From an uncultured Candidatus Saccharibacteria bacterium (GTDB lineage Bacteria > Patescibacteriota > Saccharimonadia > Saccharimonadales > SZUA-47), in assembly GCA_964536485.1 (NCBI GenBank), contig CAZHXX010000006.1, forward strand, positions 6,777 to 70,776: a stretch of 64,000 nucleotides of DNA. The letters are read 5' to 3'. Positions within the stretch are counted from its first letter, which is position 1, and each line of letters opens with the position of its first letter. Shown here in pieces: positions 37 to 57,737 of this stretch. Under the pieces are notes generated by a model. That model was not told where the DNA came from. It saw only the letters and a list, made by a program, of their open reading frames with translations, and ran no database searches. The position numbers were made by a program, and so were the translations under genes.

Positions 37-606
37 ATGCCTGATGAACAAACCCGAAGTTATCTTGCGACCATACTCACAAACATCCATGCGTATATTG
101 ATGATGCAACCAACGTGAGCGAGCTCAACCAAAAAATAGTCAATGCACCATTTTTGGACAAGCTTTACGCGACCTCGCTCGACCTCGGTATTGTGGTGCT
201 TTTGCGGGTGAACGAGCACGAAAAAATGATTGATCGCATTGCGCTGTCGGATACGAGCCTTGCCCGTGAAGCGGTGCGTGCTTCTGCAAAACCATTTAAA
301 GAGATTAGAATTCCGCTTGAAGCAAAAGGCAACATTATCGCTGAAGCTATTGCGGAGCACCGGTCTTTTGCGACCGAAGATTGGCAATCGCTCTTCACGC
401 CCGTGCTCACGAGTTCAGAAGCGCGTCGTAACCAGACAAGCGCTGGTATTGAGTGTAGTGTGGTCTACCCGCTGGATACTGTCCCTTCCGGGGCGCTTAT
501 TTTTAGTTTTTATCAACCTGAGCTGAACCTCACGCAAGCTCATCAAGATTTTATTGTCGCATTTACTGACATGGTGAGTGCAAGGCTACGCGACTTTTTG
601 CAGTAA
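37..606 (+). CDS. hypothetical protein (possible GAF-like sensory fold, guess only)
   Basis: 189-aa ORF from track; no diagnostic motif recognised; 21-nt convergent overlap with next ORF. Confidence 0.4.
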   Translation: MPDEQTRSYLATILTNIHAYIDDATNVSELNQKIVNAPFLDKLYATSLDLGIVVLLRVNEHEKMIDRIALSDTSLAREAVRASAKPFKEIRIPLEAKGNIIAEAIAEHRSFATEDWQSLFTPVLTSSEARRNQTSAGIECSVVYPLDTVPSGALIFSFYQPELNLTQAHQDFIVAFTDMVSARLRDFLQ

Positions 607-24050: not shown

Positions 24051-24121
24051 GGATTAGTCCTTTCGTTAGCGTCTTATTTATCAGTCGTATCGACCATTTA
24101 ACTGACTTGTTACCGAGAATT

Positions 24122-24151
24122 AAAAAACGTCTCTCGATTACTCGTGAGACG
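24122..24151 (-). terminator. terminator/attenuator hairpin in the rplJ leader
   Basis: CGTCTC/GAGACG stem (plus 3 inner bp) followed on the minus strand by TTTTTT; lies between the 148-aa ORF and rplJ. Confidence 0.5.
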
Positions 24152-24298
24152 CATTCTTATGCTCAAAAACAATATTTTCATATCGCCTCGACGGCACGAT
24201 TAAGTGATTTCTCACAGCCGTTGTCTACGGTAACTAAGTCAGTATATCATTCTCTCTGTTAATTGTCTAGCCAAGAGGCAACAAGATAATTATTCTGT

Positions 24299-50010: not shown

Positions 50011-50086
50011 TGGCAGGAGTGACAGGACTTGAACCTGCAACCAACGGTTTTGGAGACCGCTACTCTACCAATTGAGCTACACTCCT
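50011..50086 (-). tRNA. trpT: tRNA-Trp (anticodon CCA), CCA-3' encoded
   Basis: Hand-folded cloverleaf: acceptor AGGAGTG/CACTCCT, D arm GCTC/GAGT, anticodon arm GCGGT-CTCCAAA-ACCGT, T arm GCAGG-TTCAAGT-CCTGT, 76 nt. Confidence 0.9.
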
Positions 50087-50211
50087 ATGAAACACTTTGT
50101 TAATAATACCAGGTTCAAGCCAGGACTTGCGCCTTATTTGCTCCTCGAAGTGCAAGCACTCTCGTCGGCCAAGCTTGGAAAACTCAGAAGTTCACAGAAC
50201 TTCTTCGCCAG

Positions 50212-50262
50212 TGCAACCAACGGTTTTGGAGACCGCTACTCTACCAATTGAGCTACACTCCT
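50212..50262 (-). pseudogene. truncated tRNA-Trp copy (positions 1-51 only)
   Basis: 53-nt block 50212-50264 identical to 50036-50088; T-arm 3' half and acceptor 3' strand missing; followed by hairpin 50186-50204 plus TTTT. Confidence 0.85.
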
Positions 50263-50430
50263 ATAGCAATGCTTAATTATAACTTATAAGGTTCAAATCT
50301 GACAGGAATTGTGTCTTGGTAGCCCAAGACCGCTACTCTGGCAAGCTTTGCCTGCCCACAGAACTTTCATGTATGAAACAAGTTTCATCCTAAAAGGTTC
50401 TCTTGCGAAATGCGCTAATGGCATTTCTCA

Positions 50431-50448
50431 CAATTGAGCTACACTCCT
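50431..50448 (-). pseudogene. tRNA-Trp fragment (positions 1-18), with a second piece (positions 21-33) at 50327-50339
   Basis: 21-nt block 50431-50451 identical to 50069-50089; 13-nt block 50327-50339 identical to 50054-50066. Confidence 0.7.
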
Positions 50449-50535
50449 ATGGTTCGACACATTATACCTTAAAACTATTAATTTCTGTAGCTCCTCGTTC
50501 AGAAAACACAGCCACCTTCTGATACACTAAAGGCA

Positions 50536-53072: not shown

Positions 53073-53420
53073 ATGGGTGATTTAAGTGAAAGCCAGCAAG
53101 AAAGACTTACAATTATTGAAGGTCATGTTGATGTGGGAGCACTTTCTCTACCCGATGCCGATGTCTATGCACTGTTAGCAGGCACCGACGCATCACGTGA
53201 TGTTGTACGAGCGACCTTTGAATTTCATGGTGTACTTGCAGGGGCTAGGGTCGCACTAGAATCAGACCTTGAGGCTATTGAAATAGCCGAAAAAATGGAA
53301 GCAGCAAACTTGGCAGAAAGTTGCGGCGACATATCAGATGTTACAGATTTAAAATTAACCTTAAAGGCTATGGCCCAGACATACAAAACTGCGCGAAGCA
53401 AAGTTCCTATCAGAGAGTAG
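53073..53420 (+). CDS. hypothetical acidic protein
   Basis: 115-aa ORF with GGGAG SD 7 nt upstream. Confidence 0.45.
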   Translation: MGDLSESQQERLTIIEGHVDVGALSLPDADVYALLAGTDASRDVVRATFEFHGVLAGARVALESDLEAIEIAEKMEAANLAESCGDISDVTDLKLTLKAMAQTYKTARSKVPIRE

Positions 53421-53728
53421 TTTTTTAGTATTCACGAACTCAAAAAACTGAAAAATCAATCTTTTCTAAATTCCGCCCGCGGTCTATACTTATACATAAG
53501 TTGTGTGAGGGCTTTCATCGGCGACGATTAATTCCTCCTCGCAGACTCTATCGCATTTGTAGCCATCTGCCTATCTTTTAGCCGGATGCCTACTTCAAGC
53601 AAGCTAGCTATATATCGTTGACAGTGTGAGCGTTAAACTGATCAAAAAAGATGCAATAAACAGATTGACGTCTACTTTTTTGCACCCTTTGACTCTCTTT
53701 ATAAAGCTAAATCTTGAGGTAGAATACT

Positions 53729-53944
53729 ATGAAAATTTATTACTTTGGCGAACTTATCGAAGACACAAACGAGACAAAGAATGACACAAAAAAATCACAA
53801 GAAATAGCCCAGCTTGCGTTGAATCTTGGCGAACAAGAGCCTGCAGAAGAACCGAAGAAGACGGGGATGGAGTCTATCGGCGATATTCTGAAAGATCTTG
53901 ATCTAAACATCGACATCTACCGCCCCCTCCAGCTCTCTAACTAA
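53729..53944 (+). CDS. small hypothetical acidic protein
   Basis: 71-aa ORF, GAGG SD ~10 nt upstream. Confidence 0.35.
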   Translation: MKIYYFGELIEDTNETKNDTKKSQEIAQLALNLGEQEPAEEPKKTGMESIGDILKDLDLNIDIYRPLQLSN

Positions 53945-54013
53945 CCCGCCTCTGCTCCTTAAAATTTATATATTTTGCTTATGGCTAGCATGAGCCATGC
54001 ACTAGAAGGACGA

Positions 54014-54488
54014 TGCCTGCCCTTTACCCAGCCTTACTTTTGCCTGCAGGTGCAAAAGTAAGCAAAAACCCCGCAGCCTACAATAAGAACATGATTGCCA
54101 TACAGAGAAATGACAGCGTTCCTTGCGGAACACAAGCGGTCAAAAGTAGTTATTAAATAAGAAGACTTTTGACTAGTCCTCGGAAATGATTCGTTGTCAT
54201 TTCTCTGTATGGCATCAGTCTTATTGTTAAAGGCTGGTTAGGCTACAGTAGCTCTGTAGCTAGTCAGCACCGCAAGAAAACCGATGGTCTCAGCTAAAGA
54301 TTCTATTGAATCACTTCCGAGGACTAGCCGAGTTACTCTACTTTAGTAACTAACGAGGCCGCTCGCCGTTCCGCAGGAACGATAGAATCTTTAGCTGAGC
54401 CAATAGTGCTTTTCTTGCATGTTGCGGACTTTTTGCATACTTTTGAGACTGCAGTCAAAAGTATGGCGTGGGGTAAAAGGGGCTGGCA
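54014..54488. ncRNA. candidate large ornate structured RNA (unclassified); strand undetermined
   Basis: No ORF >=60 aa in 53945-54594. Closing helix 54014-54032/54466-54488 encloses two 11-bp hairpins, two ~165-nt rods with perfect 18-bp and 16-bp cores, and a 7-bp hairpin (details in findings). Confidence 0.6.
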
Positions 54489-54651
54489 CTAGCCCCTCAG
54501 AGCTTTTTGACTGTCAAAAAATAAGAGCCGTCTGTCGCGCGAAAAGCCACATTAAGAGTCGAAGACTCTTTCAAAAATACGGCTAAAGAAGGCATTGGAA
54601 AGCAAAAATATATTTAAAGAATTTAATAAAACTAGAAAAGGAATCTATCTT

Positions 54652-54933
54652 ATGCGTGAAGGACTACACGAACCCGTCTCCGTTCTCTCAATCTACTCAG
54701 AAAAAGTAAAAATCTTTAAGCCCGCCATACTCACCTGGCACGGCATCGACTACCGTCTCGGCAAGGTCGACTTCTACCACAAAACAAAAAAGGGTTTTAC
54801 CACCCTGCATCACTTCTCAATCTCAGCCAAAGACGAATCCGTCTACTTCAAGCTTCTCTTTGACGCCAGCACGCTCAACTGGACGCTAGAAGAATATCAA
54901 ATGGCCGGAGAAACTCAGGCTCACTATGGGTAA
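54652..54933 (+). CDS. hypothetical protein
   Basis: Track ORF (TTG 54595) probably starts at ATG 54652 (AAAGGA upstream); 93 aa. Confidence 0.45.
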   Translation: MREGLHEPVSVLSIYSEKVKIFKPAILTWHGIDYRLGKVDFYHKTKKGFTTLHHFSISAKDESVYFKLLFDASTLNWTLEEYQMAGETQAHYG

Positions 54934-55015
54934 ATTACCTCCATAGTCCTTGAGCACTTATACAGTTAGCATTTTTCTTAGCGCAGTAGTAAATTAAATT
55001 TAGGTAGAAGTAACC

Positions 55016-55423
55016 ATGTATAAAACTTCAGTTACAAGAAATCCAGGAACGTCCTATGGGGAACTTATGAAAAGTGCTCGTAAGACTTTTCATAGAATTC
55101 AGAAGATGACACCTCGTAGGCAGGCCTATATAAGATCTGCTTACTTTAAAAAGAATAAGGTTTTTGTAACGCTTTTCTGGCATCATCTTGCTCAGAAGCA
55201 CCCTGCGGAGCAGGCAAAAAGGCTAAAGTTCTACGATGCGGCGATTGAGCTCATAAGACATACATCTCAGACTCCAGAGACAATTTTTGATAAAGGTAAC
55301 CTGGAGATACTATTGCATCGTTTTCAGGGAGAAACAAAAGAGGGCTTCAAGTTCAGTGTACAGATAAAAGAGCAAAAAAGAACCGGAAGAAAAGACTTCA
55401 TGTCGGTATTTCCCAAAAAATAA
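55016..55423 (+). CDS. hypothetical basic protein
   Basis: 135-aa ORF, no motif I can name with confidence. Confidence 0.5.
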   Translation: MYKTSVTRNPGTSYGELMKSARKTFHRIQKMTPRRQAYIRSAYFKKNKVFVTLFWHHLAQKHPAEQAKRLKFYDAAIELIRHTSQTPETIFDKGNLEILLHRFQGETKEGFKFSVQIKEQKRTGRKDFMSVFPKK

Positions 55424-55545
55424 AGAACTCCCGCTGATGTGGCGTTGAAACCACGGTGCCGGAGATCTTGTTTAAATAGTAGCAAATCATATGCACATTG
55501 TCAATCTGCCTATGGTTAAGCTGATGGAAACCTGTAAATAATAAA

Positions 55546-55803
55546 CTATATTTCTAAAACCGCAGGAACAAACGTCCCAGCAAGAAGAGCTTCACGGTTG
55601 CTCTTCATTACACAGGCGCCACTTTCGTTTGCAATAGAACCAAAGAGGCCACTTTGTATGGTGCGGAGACAGCCCGGGATGCGACACGTCGTATTTTTGC
55701 CAGCAGGCGGCATTGGCGCTGTTTCAGCACAAGGAACTACTTCGGTAGGCAAGATTTCTACTGACTCAGGGGAAGCTTGTCTTACGAAAACTGGAGTATT
55801 CAT
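55546..55803 (-). CDS. hypothetical 85-aa Cys-containing protein, leaderless
   Basis: ATG 55803 lies 8 nt downstream of a perfect consensus promoter. Confidence 0.4.
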   Translation of the reverse strand: MNTPVFVRQASPESVEILPTEVVPCAETAPMPPAGKNTTCRIPGCLRTIQSGLFGSIANESGACVMKSNREALLAGTFVPAVLEI

Positions 55804-55811
55804 AATATTAT

Positions 55812-55840
55812 ATTATAACAAATTATGAACAATATGTCAA
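55812..55840 (-). promoter_or_regulatory. perfect consensus sigma70 promoter (TTGACA-17-TATAAT)
   Basis: Minus strand: TTGACA (55840-55835), tattgttcataatttgt (17 nt), TATAAT (55817-55812), 8 nt, ATG. Confidence 0.65.
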
Positions 55841-56178
55841 TACACTCATCTGTTTTAGGGCCTTGTCTACAGCATCGTCTTGAAACTGATGAATCATGGT
55901 TTGAAAATGACCGAATCATTGCCGAGGACCAGTCCGGCTACTCCTTTTCAGTAACTAGCCGGATCGCTTGCGTCCCGAGATCGTGTTACCTTTCACACAC
56001 AAGCAATCTTGTATTGCTTGCTGTCGGAAAGGTTGCTTGTCGGGCACGGTCAGTTTTGAGCCATGTTCAATCATGTTTTCAAGAGGGCTGCGGCTCTTTT
56101 GCTAACTTTTCCAGCTGCTGGGAAAAGTTAGTCCTGGGTCAAGGGACGAAGTCGCCCTTGCAGAAAAGGCCTTTATGA
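55825..56178 (+). CDS. doubtful ORF (117 aa) versus structured leader upstream of the Y-family polymerase
   Basis: Ends in an ATGA overlap with the polymerase start (coupling-like), but Cys/Ser-rich junk-like composition and 4 strong hairpins inside. Confidence 0.25.
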   Translation: MNNMSIHSSVLGPCLQHRLETDESWFENDRIIAEDQSGYSFSVTSRIACVPRSCYLSHTSNLVLLAVGKVACRARSVLSHVQSCFQEGCGSFANFSSCWEKLVLGQGTKSPLQKRPL

Positions 56179-57737
56179 ACAATCTTCCGCTCAACAAACA
56201 ACTTCCCTATACGATGCACATCGACCTCAATTCGTGTTTTGCTATTATCGAGCAACAAGCAAATCGGCTTTTGCGAGGCAAACCAGTCGGCATCGCCGCC
56301 TATGACACGCCCAGAGGCTTCGTACTTGCAGCCAGCTATGAAGCTAAAGCCAAGGGGGTGAAGCTTGGGGTAAACGTAGAGCAGTCGCGAGCATTGTGCC
56401 CAGGGATCATCATTCTTACGCCTGACCCCGCTAAATATCGTGAAGCCCACAAACGCTTCAAAGAGTTATTGCTAGAGTACACGCCAAATGTAGTGCCAAA
56501 GAGCATCGATGAGTTCGTATTAGACATGAGCTCTTCACCAGAGCTCAGAAGAGTGAAGGATGAATTACGGATGAAGAACAACACCCCCGCAGCATCTCAT
56601 AACTCATCATTCATAACTCGTCACTCAGAGCCCCCTCAACTATCAACTGTCGATCCTCAAGCCTCAGAATCAGACCGGCTTCTTCACAACGAGGCCATGA
56701 AATTAATTGGCCTAAGTATGAAGGCGAAGATTCGTGAGCGTCTCGGCGAATGGGTGACGGTCAACGTAGGGATTAGCACTAATCGCTTCTTGGCTAAATA
56801 TGCCGCCGGCTTTGGCAAGCCAGACGGCATGACACTCATCGACCATACTAACCTTAGAGATTACTACCGATGTCGCACGCCTCAGACTTGTGCTAGTTTT
56901 AATTCTGCTCAAAAGCCGGTCGATCGCTGTGAGTCGTGCGGGGGGATGAAGTTGGTGGACTTGCCAGGTATCAACGTCCGTTACCGAGCCCGACTCCGCA
57001 TGGCTCAGATTTATACCCCGCTCGACTTCCTAGAGGCTGACCTAAACGTATTACGTAAGCAAGTATTTAAAAGCATCGTGGGCTACTATTGGTATCTGCG
57101 CCTTCGTGGGCATGAAATAGACAAAGTAGAATTTAGTCGCAAAAGTATTGGGCACCAGTACGCCCTAAGCGACAAAACTACTGATATGGAGAAGCTGGAG
57201 CGTTTACTCCTGAAATTGTGTGAAAAAACCGGCCGGCGCTTGCGTAAAAACAACCTCTACGCTCTGGGCATCCATCTTTACCTTGGTTTTGTATCTGACT
57301 ATCCGTCGTGGGATGGCCCTGCCAGTTTTGAAAATATGCAAAATATTCGCTCATGGCATCATGGTCATAAGGTAGATCATCGCCTCTACTCAACCTCCGA
57401 CATATACGAAGCAGCCAAAAAACTCCTGCATCAAGCAGAGATACCTAACCGTGTAAAAATTATGTCCGTCCATGTCTTTGAGCTTCGCGATTGGGATCCA
57501 GAGCAGCTCACCATCTTTGATATAGAAAAACCTGTTGAAGCAGACAGTGGGACAAAGCATCGTTTGCAAACGGTCGCCACAGGTATACGAAGTGTCGGCT
57601 CCCGCAAGCGCGTCTCAGACGCCGTAGATGCTATTAATAATCGTTACGGTGAGTTTGTAGTTACTCCTGCAGCCATGATGGACATGTCCAGCGAAATCCT
57701 CGACCGCATCGCCTTCGGCCAAGTCAAAGATATGTAA
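56175..57737 (+). CDS. Y-family DNA polymerase, UmuC/ImpB-like, with insertions
   Basis: 'MHIDLNSCFAIIEQ' (DxN as in UmuC 'CDVNAFYASCE'), 'KPVGIAAYD..GFVLAASYEAKAKGVKLG', 'SIDEFVLDMS' catalytic DE. Confidence 0.85.
   Translation: MNNLPLNKQLPYTMHIDLNSCFAIIEQQANRLLRGKPVGIAAYDTPRGFVLAASYEAKAKGVKLGVNVEQSRALCPGIIILTPDPAKYREAHKRFKELLLEYTPNVVPKSIDEFVLDMSSSPELRRVKDELRMKNNTPAASHNSSFITRHSEPPQLSTVDPQASESDRLLHNEAMKLIGLSMKAKIRERLGEWVTVNVGISTNRFLAKYAAGFGKPDGMTLIDHTNLRDYYRCRTPQTCASFNSAQKPVDRCESCGGMKLVDLPGINVRYRARLRMAQIYTPLDFLEADLNVLRKQVFKSIVGYYWYLRLRGHEIDKVEFSRKSIGHQYALSDKTTDMEKLERLLLKLCEKTGRRLRKNNLYALGIHLYLGFVSDYPSWDGPASFENMQNIRSWHHGHKVDHRLYSTSDIYEAAKKLLHQAEIPNRVKIMSVHVFELRDWDPEQLTIFDIEKPVEADSGTKHRLQTVATGIRSVGSRKRVSDAVDAINNRYGEFVVTPAAMMDMSSEILDRIAFGQVKDM

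Follow-up and report, generated by a model that had tools for sequence, protein, structure and literature searches.

A head-to-head pair of diverged structured units, most likely cis-acting RNA, in the translesion polymerase operon of a Saccharibacteria genome

The DNA considered here (hereafter the window) is a 64,000-nucleotide stretch of contig CAZHXX010000006.1 from an uncultured member of the Saccharibacteria (TM7, Candidate Phyla Radiation [CPR]). It carries an element, el1 (54003-54498), between two genes, p71 and p93, of an operon that also encodes a Y-family (translesion) DNA polymerase. An earlier note on this DNA described el1 as one large RNA with two domains, D1 and D2, and two similar hairpins, Hb and Hk. 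There is very little doubt that el1 is a head-to-head inverted pair composed of two diverged copies of one structured unit of ~250 nucleotides (nt). This arrangement replaces the two-domain view: D1 and Hb make up unit A, and D2 and Hk make up unit B. A third copy (unit C, or el2) was recognized as a related sequence directly upstream of the polymerase gene, with its last base 15 nt before the ATG. The best explanation overall, which we hold with moderate confidence, is that the inverted pair is most likely a cis-acting RNA in the polymerase operon.

The evidence for the inverted architecture is plain when D1 is read as its reverse complement. All the features of D2 then appear in identical order, as seen in matches printed with their flanks: a closing stem, a conserved motif (core1), a hairpin, CCGCTTG-GTTCCGCA-GGAACG (core2), the closing stem again, GGCTGCGGGGTTTTTGC, an 11-bp hairpin and GCTGGGTAAAGGGC. 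An nhmmer profile built from 13 units recovers unit A at 54247-54003 on the minus strand (174.4 bits, E 4.8e-52), unit B at 54260-54499 on the plus strand (155.5 bits) and unit C at 55860-56162 on the plus strand (143.4 bits). Similarly, a covariance model (CM R1) scores unit A at 141.8 bits (54071-54239, minus strand), unit B at 123.7 bits (54262-54427, plus strand) and unit C at 72.9 bits, and so the minus-strand copy does align to the unit model, as a head-to-head pair requires. Units A and B, each in its own sense, are 75% identical, and the three window copies, all located within 2.2 kb, are 60-75% identical in pairwise comparisons. Strong folds are predicted for unit A alone on the minus strand (z = -9.0) and unit B alone on the plus strand (z = -7.0). 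The whole region (53960-54540) gives z = -12.2 on the plus strand and z = -13.7 on the minus strand, with the caveat that its minimum-free-energy fold forms a long-range helix between Hb and Hk instead of two separate hairpins. The coordinates of these features are collected in Table 1.

Table 1. Features of the inverted pair and its operon, in window positions
Feature	Position	Strand	Evidence or remarks
p71, first gene of the conserved p71-p93-polymerase operon	53729..53944	+	tblastn synteny
Unit A (el1-), complete unit copy; Hb + D1 of the earlier note	54003..54260	-	nhmmer, CM, fold
Hb, 3' hairpin (H3) of unit A	54033..54062	-	11-bp arms, 8-nt loop
Unit A apical domain	54098..54212	-	P3 54195-54212 with 54098-54115; P4 54140-54172 (TCAAAAGT...ACTTTTGA); P5 + core2 54117-54139
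Core1 of unit A, GAATCATTTCCGAGGACTAG on the minus strand; includes the 13-mer at 54173-54185	54173..54192	-	fits family pattern GARTCAYTNNCGAGGACNNG
Central palindromic hairpin, GGCTACAG-tagc-TCTGTAGC; 5' ends of inverted units A and B meet here	54241..54260		predicted in both single-unit folds
Unit B (el1+), complete unit copy; D2 + Hk of the earlier note; sense, upstream of p93	54241..54498	+	nhmmer, CM, fold
Unit B apical domain	54287..54399	+	P3 54287-54306 with 54382-54399; P4 54328-54358; P5 + core2 54359-54381
Core1 of unit B, GAATCACTTCCGAGGACTAG; includes the 13-mer at 54315-54327	54308..54327	+	positions mostly invariant columns in alignments A2-A4
Hk, 3' hairpin (H3) of unit B	54436..54465	+	11-bp arms, 8-nt loop
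p93, conserved 93-aa all-beta orphan protein by the polymerase	54652..54933	+	119 homologous clusters
Unit C (el2), third copy with an extra inserted hairpin (55980-56042)	55860..56160	+	nhmmer, CM
Unit C H3 hairpin	56103-56130	+	
Y-family (translesion) DNA polymerase, 520 aa	56175..57737	+	Pfam IMS 5.4e-31, IMS_C 2.2e-14

This architecture also accounts for the complementarity that had suggested a long-range tertiary or pseudoknot contact, or a pairing in trans that multimerizes the molecule. Read in reverse complement, the segment CTAGTCCTCGGAA (54173-54185) does match TTCCGAGGACTAG (54315-54327) exactly. In 64 kb, an exact copy of the 13-mer is found at these two sites and nowhere else (~0.002 exact matches are expected by simple arithmetic), and the complement extends to 20 nt at 95%, with one mismatch (54173-54192 and 54308-54327). 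Because D1 read on the minus strand is a full copy of the unit in D2, this complement is the most conserved junction motif of the unit, core1 (GARUCAYUNNCGAGGACNNG), present in both orientations. The same motif, as the pattern GARTCAYTNNCGAGGACNNG, emerged from comparing loci and was used to scan metagenome contigs. A selected pairing between the two sites finds no comparative support: 14 solo units have no complementary partner within +-600 nt, and the partner is found only in the window and in loci L125 and L189, each of which has a second inverted copy, always at an offset of -135/-136. In L189, a close relative of the window, the 13-mers of the two copies differ at one position, such that the complement falls to 12/13 with no compensation.

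The hairpin claims of the earlier note fared better. Both strings are present as described, CTTACTTTTGC-ctgcaggt-GCAAAAGTAAG for Hb and CATACTTTTGA-gactgcag-TCAAAAGTATG for Hk, as are the CTGCAG hexamers in their loops (54044-54049 and 54449-54454), and the 11-bp arms of each hairpin are perfect. At the two pairs by which the stems differ, the change is compensatory (T:A to A:T, and C:G to A:T). The proposal that these are paralogous hairpins whose pairing is under selection holds across 13 homologous units, in which this hairpin has 95% of its cells paired and 8 of its 11 pairs changed on both sides. The recurring stem motif was also found as reported, with TCAAAAGT at 54140 and 54455, ACTTTTGA at 54165 and 54439, and G/C variants in Hb; these occurrences correspond to the arms of H3 and, in unit A, to the stem of P4.

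The idea of kissing CUGCAG loops gained no support. CTGCAG sites are not enriched in the window (15 sites per 64 kb, approximately the random expectation), and the loop carries CTGCAG in el1+, el1-, L125- and L189+. A palindromic hexamer is present in 6/17 scorable H3 loops (close relatives: 4/6). The L189 orthologue of Hk has the loop GACTGTAG, whose hexamer CTGTAG has lost the palindrome, and other H3 loops read ACCTGTAG, ACCTGCTG, CTCAAT, CGGA, CGGT, CTGACT and CTGC. Thus, given the 14 solo units that lack a partner and the palindrome lost in the Hk orthologue, kissing loops, tertiary pairing and multimerization are unsupported by comparison. Homologues exhibit neither co-variation of the 13-mer pair nor conserved palindromic loops, which is the outcome that the earlier note itself had named as refuting the first two of these ideas. 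There is a methodological lesson to be learned here: what looks like covariation, or like a long "tertiary" complement, inside a single sequence may reflect no more than two gene copies on opposite strands.

The unit itself has a well-defined fold. It is composed, in order, of a rod (P1-P2-P3), a multi-helix junction, a variable P4 hairpin, a small P5, a U-rich tract, the 11-bp H3 and a short G+C hairpin, and the junction displays the near-invariant unpaired nucleotides GARUCAYU, GA, ACNAG, CCG, GUYCCGCA and ACG. RNAalifold applied to 13 units yields 42 pairs, 30 of which have compensatory changes. Cells are paired in 87.6% of cases, versus 66.0% in shuffled alignments and 39.5-53.9% in slid controls, and the covariation score of 0.548 compares with 0.176 in shuffles (0/500 reach 0.548) and 0.085-0.172 in slid controls. 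The CM R1 spans 169 positions with only 15 pairs, since MAFFT mis-registered P3; this helix was therefore analyzed per instance, and covariation was counted on alignment A2. The closing stem P3 is wholly different in sequence between units and yet its pairing is always kept. Its 313 positions across 17 units comprise 268 Watson-Crick pairs, 32 G·U pairs, 6 A·C and 7 other mismatches.

An internal G·U recurs in the H3 of four independent units (L007, L009, L099 and L109), and minus-strand copies retain G·U pairs in their own sense. P5 hairpins have stems of varying length and end in CUUG or GAAA-type loops, which are tetraloops typical of RNA, and the loop or spacer of H3 measures 4 to 8 nt, depending on the unit. 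Comparison of the window with L189 shows one double compensatory change and two wobble-forming changes in unit B, read in its own sense. Thus, the two generic hallmarks of structured RNA, compensatory changes beyond those in controls and an excess of G·U over A·C, are both observed. The ratio of 32 G·U to 6 A·C in P3 means that the structure forms on the strand that carries core1 and not in duplex DNA. The fold is conserved, covarying and specific to that strand, and so it belongs to a single-stranded nucleic acid, most likely RNA and less probably single-stranded DNA. An attenuator-like switch, in which P1 would exchange its partner for the distal segment GGCUGGGU, was considered and rejected: only the proximal partner covaries (L107, L109 and L099), and the distal one is absent from many units.

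At least ~20 units are present in Saccharibacteria/Saccharimonadales genomes and metagenome contigs among the matches listed; the scan of metagenome contigs with the motif pattern counts listed matches, and its totals are therefore lower bounds. The P4 sequence type of unit A is found also in the units of L043 and L125. Neither the remaining ~62 kb of the window nor ~150 kb of flanking sequence from 20 genome loci yielded further units in profile and CM searches. Rfam 15 returned nothing for the units across the window at the gathering score, nothing relevant in 53300-55000 or 55000-56300 at E<=10, and nothing for the units of L125, L043, L099, L189 and L002 at E<=1. The unit matches none of the Rfam 15 models for ROOL, GOLLD, OLE, HEARO, raiA, group I/II introns or self-cleaving ribozymes. 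The literature searched, on structured RNAs of Saccharibacteria and CPR bacteria and on umuC/dinB motifs, contained no description of it. CPR bacteria are poorly studied and their regulatory RNAs almost all still to be described, and here the unit stands as a well-supported complex fold outside Rfam.

The host locus offers several clues to function. The conserved gene order is maf - p71 - p93 - polymerase - typA, and in the window p93 is followed by p135 and then the polymerase. Several lineages have a compact p71-p93-polymerase operon with 3-4 nt between genes and no unit, and therefore the 700-nt gap in the window is a derived insertion. The p93 family comprises 119 protein clusters, among which the sole organism name is Candidatus Saccharibacteria, and among 20 related genome loci those with taxon names are all metagenome-assembled genomes of Saccharibacteria/Saccharimonadales. 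AlphaFold predicts a six-stranded all-beta structure for p93 (mean predicted local distance difference test score 89.5); the protein has no PDB fold match (Foldseek, E<=0.001) and no Pfam match, and hence provides no functional clue. It is always encoded in Saccharibacteria beside an unusual Y-family polymerase, making it a candidate accessory factor. A Pfam search of the small open reading frames (ORFs) nearby found nothing beyond the polymerase and an EEP nuclease.

Units lie upstream of p93 or the polymerase in the window and in L007, L009, L016, L018, L189 and L190. In L107, a sense unit is positioned 49 nt upstream of an operon for a UmuD-like S24 peptidase and UmuC, and units flank nrdR in L043, which cluster names place in the Saccharibacteria. 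Overall, ~10 copies are in the sense orientation upstream of p93, polymerase, umuDC or nrdR genes, in a sample partly biased to p93 loci. Four copies are antisense, three of them in pairs and one (L195) solo, and several copies have no downstream gene.

The unit as a cis-acting RNA within the p71-p93-polymerase transcript is the leading possibility, though one that falls just short of being called probable. Units would be insertions between cistrons of an otherwise compact translesion operon, where they might serve as leaders or intercistronic elements that affect how the downstream p93/polymerase message is translated or processed, or how stable it is. On this view, the partner on the minus strand would be a duplicate, maintained by the same selection or by gene conversion. 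This reading is favored because units are enriched at the locus and absent from the ~200 kb of other sequence examined, because most units are sense and have a start codon a few tens of nucleotides after their end, and because the sense copy survives rearrangements and old paralogues have been kept by compensatory evolution. Indeed, a sense unit beside p93 has been retained through three rearranged alleles, those of the window, L189 and L190/L188. The unit resembles cis-regulatory leaders and riboswitch-like motifs in having covarying helices and a junction of several helices whose unpaired nucleotides are nearly invariant, in its usual sense placement shortly before a start codon, and in its recurring neighbors (Y-family polymerase operons, umuDC and nrdR). 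It differs in that it matches no Rfam 15 family, in that no expression platform or ligand can be named, in that some copies are antisense, paired with an inverted copy or placed behind genes, and in its length of ~250 nt, which exceeds that of most aptamers. The 5' flank of el2 can pair with the AAGG Shine-Dalgarno region.

A number of observations weigh against a cis-acting role. Among relatives of the L107 operon, L195 has an antisense unit in the same intergenic gap and three others have none. Units also reside in varied contexts, such as after rnhA (L060), after an IrrE-like gene (L109) and near rpsJ/rplC (L095), and the minus-strand copies el1-, L189-, L016- and L125- have no downstream sense gene. 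No promoter, terminator or helix sequestering the Shine-Dalgarno sequence that might act as an expression platform could be defined as conserved across units, in a comparison made partly by eye. Most Saccharibacteria have the compact operon without a unit, which hence is dispensable. Also, many loci were gathered through p93, so that the link to this context and to polymerases is partly ascertainment bias, and the alignments are small (13-17 related sequences), with CM E-values that are rough.

A bolder proposal, which we consider rather improbable, is that the unit represents a new class of complex regulatory RNA over translesion operons and genes for damage response or deoxynucleoside triphosphate supply (umuDC, nrdR and rnhA), comparable to an RNA-based SOS operator or a damage-signal riboswitch. 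In that case the head-to-head pair might tolerate flipping, as a module in which one copy is always in the sense orientation for the downstream gene. If the unit does control the operon, it would link an RNA element to translesion synthesis for the first time and would provide a handle on the regulation of mutagenesis in reduced genomes.

The main rival explanation is that the unit is a selfish, recombinogenic or mobile intergenic repeat of the ERIC, REPIN, Correia or miniature inverted-repeat transposable element (MITE) kind. On this account, which seems unlikely yet carries real weight, the fold would serve the repeat's own propagation, the repeat would land or persist at intercistronic sites, and the pair would be a REPIN-like doublet. 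Units are derived insertions in a compact operon and are polymorphic between species, and between close relatives both presence or absence and orientation are observed to vary. Copies in either orientation, and inverted doublets, are seen repeatedly (window, L189, L125 and L016). The p93 of L189 is 95% identical to that of the window, and el1 in L189 is wholly inverted relative to collinear flanks, with 84.4% identity over 450 nt in reverse versus 67% forward (window 54036-54472 matches L189 712-270); the two orientations were seen in different strains, not in a single population. The sequence immediately flanking el1 shows no conservation between the window and L189. Strains L190 and L188 have a p93 identical to that of L189 but an entirely different upstream unit with an el2-like P4. 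Furthermore, Logan contigs of the window's own strain, from two runs, end at 54041 and restart at 54477. These breaks (54041/54042 and 54476/54477) flank el1, lie asymmetrically in its repeats, and fit population heterogeneity or assembly trouble at el1; they are no proof of inversion. The varied contexts among unbiased metagenome matches are likewise what a mobile repeat would produce.

Known intergenic repeats of this type (ERIC/IRU, REP/BIME, REPIN doublets, Correia and BOX/RUP) are transcribed within operons, and are high-copy and similar within a genome. The unit is like them in its intercistronic insertion, either orientation, presence/absence polymorphism, inverted doublets, hairpin potential and location at rearrangement hot spots. 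It differs in having three clustered copies that are 60-75% identical, all within the 2.2 kb noted above, with none in the other 62 kb; many dispersed, near-identical copies were not encountered there or in the flanks of the 20 genome loci. The orthologous el1 of L189 is 84% identical, near the 89% of flanking DNA, which points to old, vertically inherited copies and no recent burst. Pfam detected no transposase or recombinase in neighboring ORFs, and no RAYT or other transposase was seen. Neither a target-site duplication nor terminal inverted repeats could be defined at the units, with occupied and empty sites aligning too poorly to reveal a duplication. A blastn search with el1 against phage and plasmid records had no match, and a pattern scan of viral contigs gave 45 chance matches and 0 CM-confirmed units. 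An invariant junction and covarying helices with compensatory changes across divergent lineages would also be unusual for MITEs.

It would be a considerable surprise if each unit were a stand-alone gene for a trans-acting small RNA that works on the polymerase, an mRNA or a partner protein, with paralogues clustered near the genes they serve and orientation free. Such genes could explain both orientations and the copies downstream of genes (L043b after nrdR and L060 after rnhA), as well as the G·U pairs kept by minus-strand copies in their own sense, and some units, for example that of L125, end in a short G+C hairpin followed by U residues. Yet the terminal hairpin lacks a consistent U tract, no promoter-like sites are found upstream of the window units, and head-to-head pairs would need each promoter to reside inside the partner unit. 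The end of several units lies 12-50 nt ahead of a start codon, a placement typical of leaders.

Another alternative holds that el1 is an invertible DNA segment, in which Hb and Hk are inverted sites like those of lox, FRT or dif (11-bp arms and an 8-bp spacer with CTGCAG) and el1 flips as a switch for p93 and the polymerase. The geometry of Hb and Hk fits the 11-8-11 arrangement of lox/FRT sites, el1 is bounded by inverted repeats and is found in both orientations in related strains, and assembly graphs break at both its ends in two sequencing runs. This alternative is nevertheless very improbable. The arms covary as a hairpin, with compensatory changes and strand-specific G·U pairs that are irrelevant to a duplex binding site, and the spacer length is not fixed (4 to 8 nt). 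Neighboring genes encode no recombinase domain detectable by Pfam, and 54000-54500 contains no promoter-like site. Either orientation puts an equivalent sense unit beside p93, leaving no obvious switch, and both the asymmetry of the break points in the repeats and the unconserved immediate flanks of el1 in L189 are at odds with site-specific inversion.

Least credible of all is the original model of a single two-domain RNA with kissing loops and a D1-D2 13-nt pseudoknot or trans multimer: complementary sequences exist, and in a plus-strand read-through transcript antisense unit A could pair with unit B (region z = -12), but the solo units lack a 13-mer partner, the closest orthologue and most homologues have lost the loop palindrome, the "domains" are one unit on opposite strands, each folding well alone, and Rfam gives no match to ROOL, GOLLD or OLE, which are known multimer-forming RNAs. 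The unit is like those RNAs and the HIV-1 dimerization initiation site in having a complex fold, a palindromic loop hexamer in some copies and no known function. It differs from ROOL, GOLLD and OLE in that their covariance models do not match, loop palindromy is not conserved, and the apparent two-domain symmetry is that of two gene copies on opposite strands.

Several additional features of the operon were recorded. A noncoding stretch upstream of p71 (53540-53650; ..TTGTAGCC..CTACTTCAAGCAAGCTAG..TTGACAGTGTGAGCGTTAAACTG..), conserved with a distant compact-operon lineage (L208, ~1370-1590), probably represents either the promoter/operator of the operon or a further RNA. Just upstream of el2 lies a box, TATAACAAATTATGAA...GTCAATA, with conserved counterparts in L007, L010 and L191. 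Leading leftward from it on the minus strand is a perfect sigma-70 consensus promoter (55812-55840, TTGACA-17-TATAAT with TG), which would drive a ~380-nt window-specific region (55424-55805) with an 85-aa ORF that has no homologue in related loci. This region was considered as a fourth copy of the unit and rejected, as it lacks similarity to the unit and folds only weakly (z = -1.9).

An ORF of 117 codons (55825-56178) runs from the conserved box through all of el2 and overlaps the polymerase start in ATGA. L191, which lacks el2, has a 13-codon upstream ORF (~739-780) from the same box with the same ATGA overlap, and the two together suggest a leader ORF translationally coupled to the polymerase. 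The occurrence of ATGAACAAT at 55825 and at the polymerase start was considered as a sign of an intron or target-site duplication and was rejected: the upstream copy belongs to a conserved divergent-promoter box, which the empty site L191 has as well.

Some observations concern the surroundings of units at other loci. In L095 (564-5600), two weak inverted unit copies bracket rpsJ and an unrelated 4.5-kb block (VanY-like and metalloprotease-like genes) that parts rpsJ from rplC. In L099, a LOOT RNA (Rfam RF03000, 74.5 bits; 342-453, plus strand) lies ~120 nt from a unit on the opposite strand.

Elsewhere in the window, the first ~20-52 nt of tRNA-Trp (ATAGGAGTGTAGCTCAATTG...) are present three times in tandem on the minus strand (50011-50449, with starts at 50449, 50262 and 50086). 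A TATAAT-like box precedes each; only the last copy is complete (50011-50086), and the middle one diverges after the 5' strand of the T-arm. These partial copies could be remnants of serial integration or might give rise to tRNA-like chimeric transcripts. Finally, an ordinary ribosomal protein L10 leader (Rfam RF00557, 62.2 bits) is located at 24113-24248 on the minus strand.

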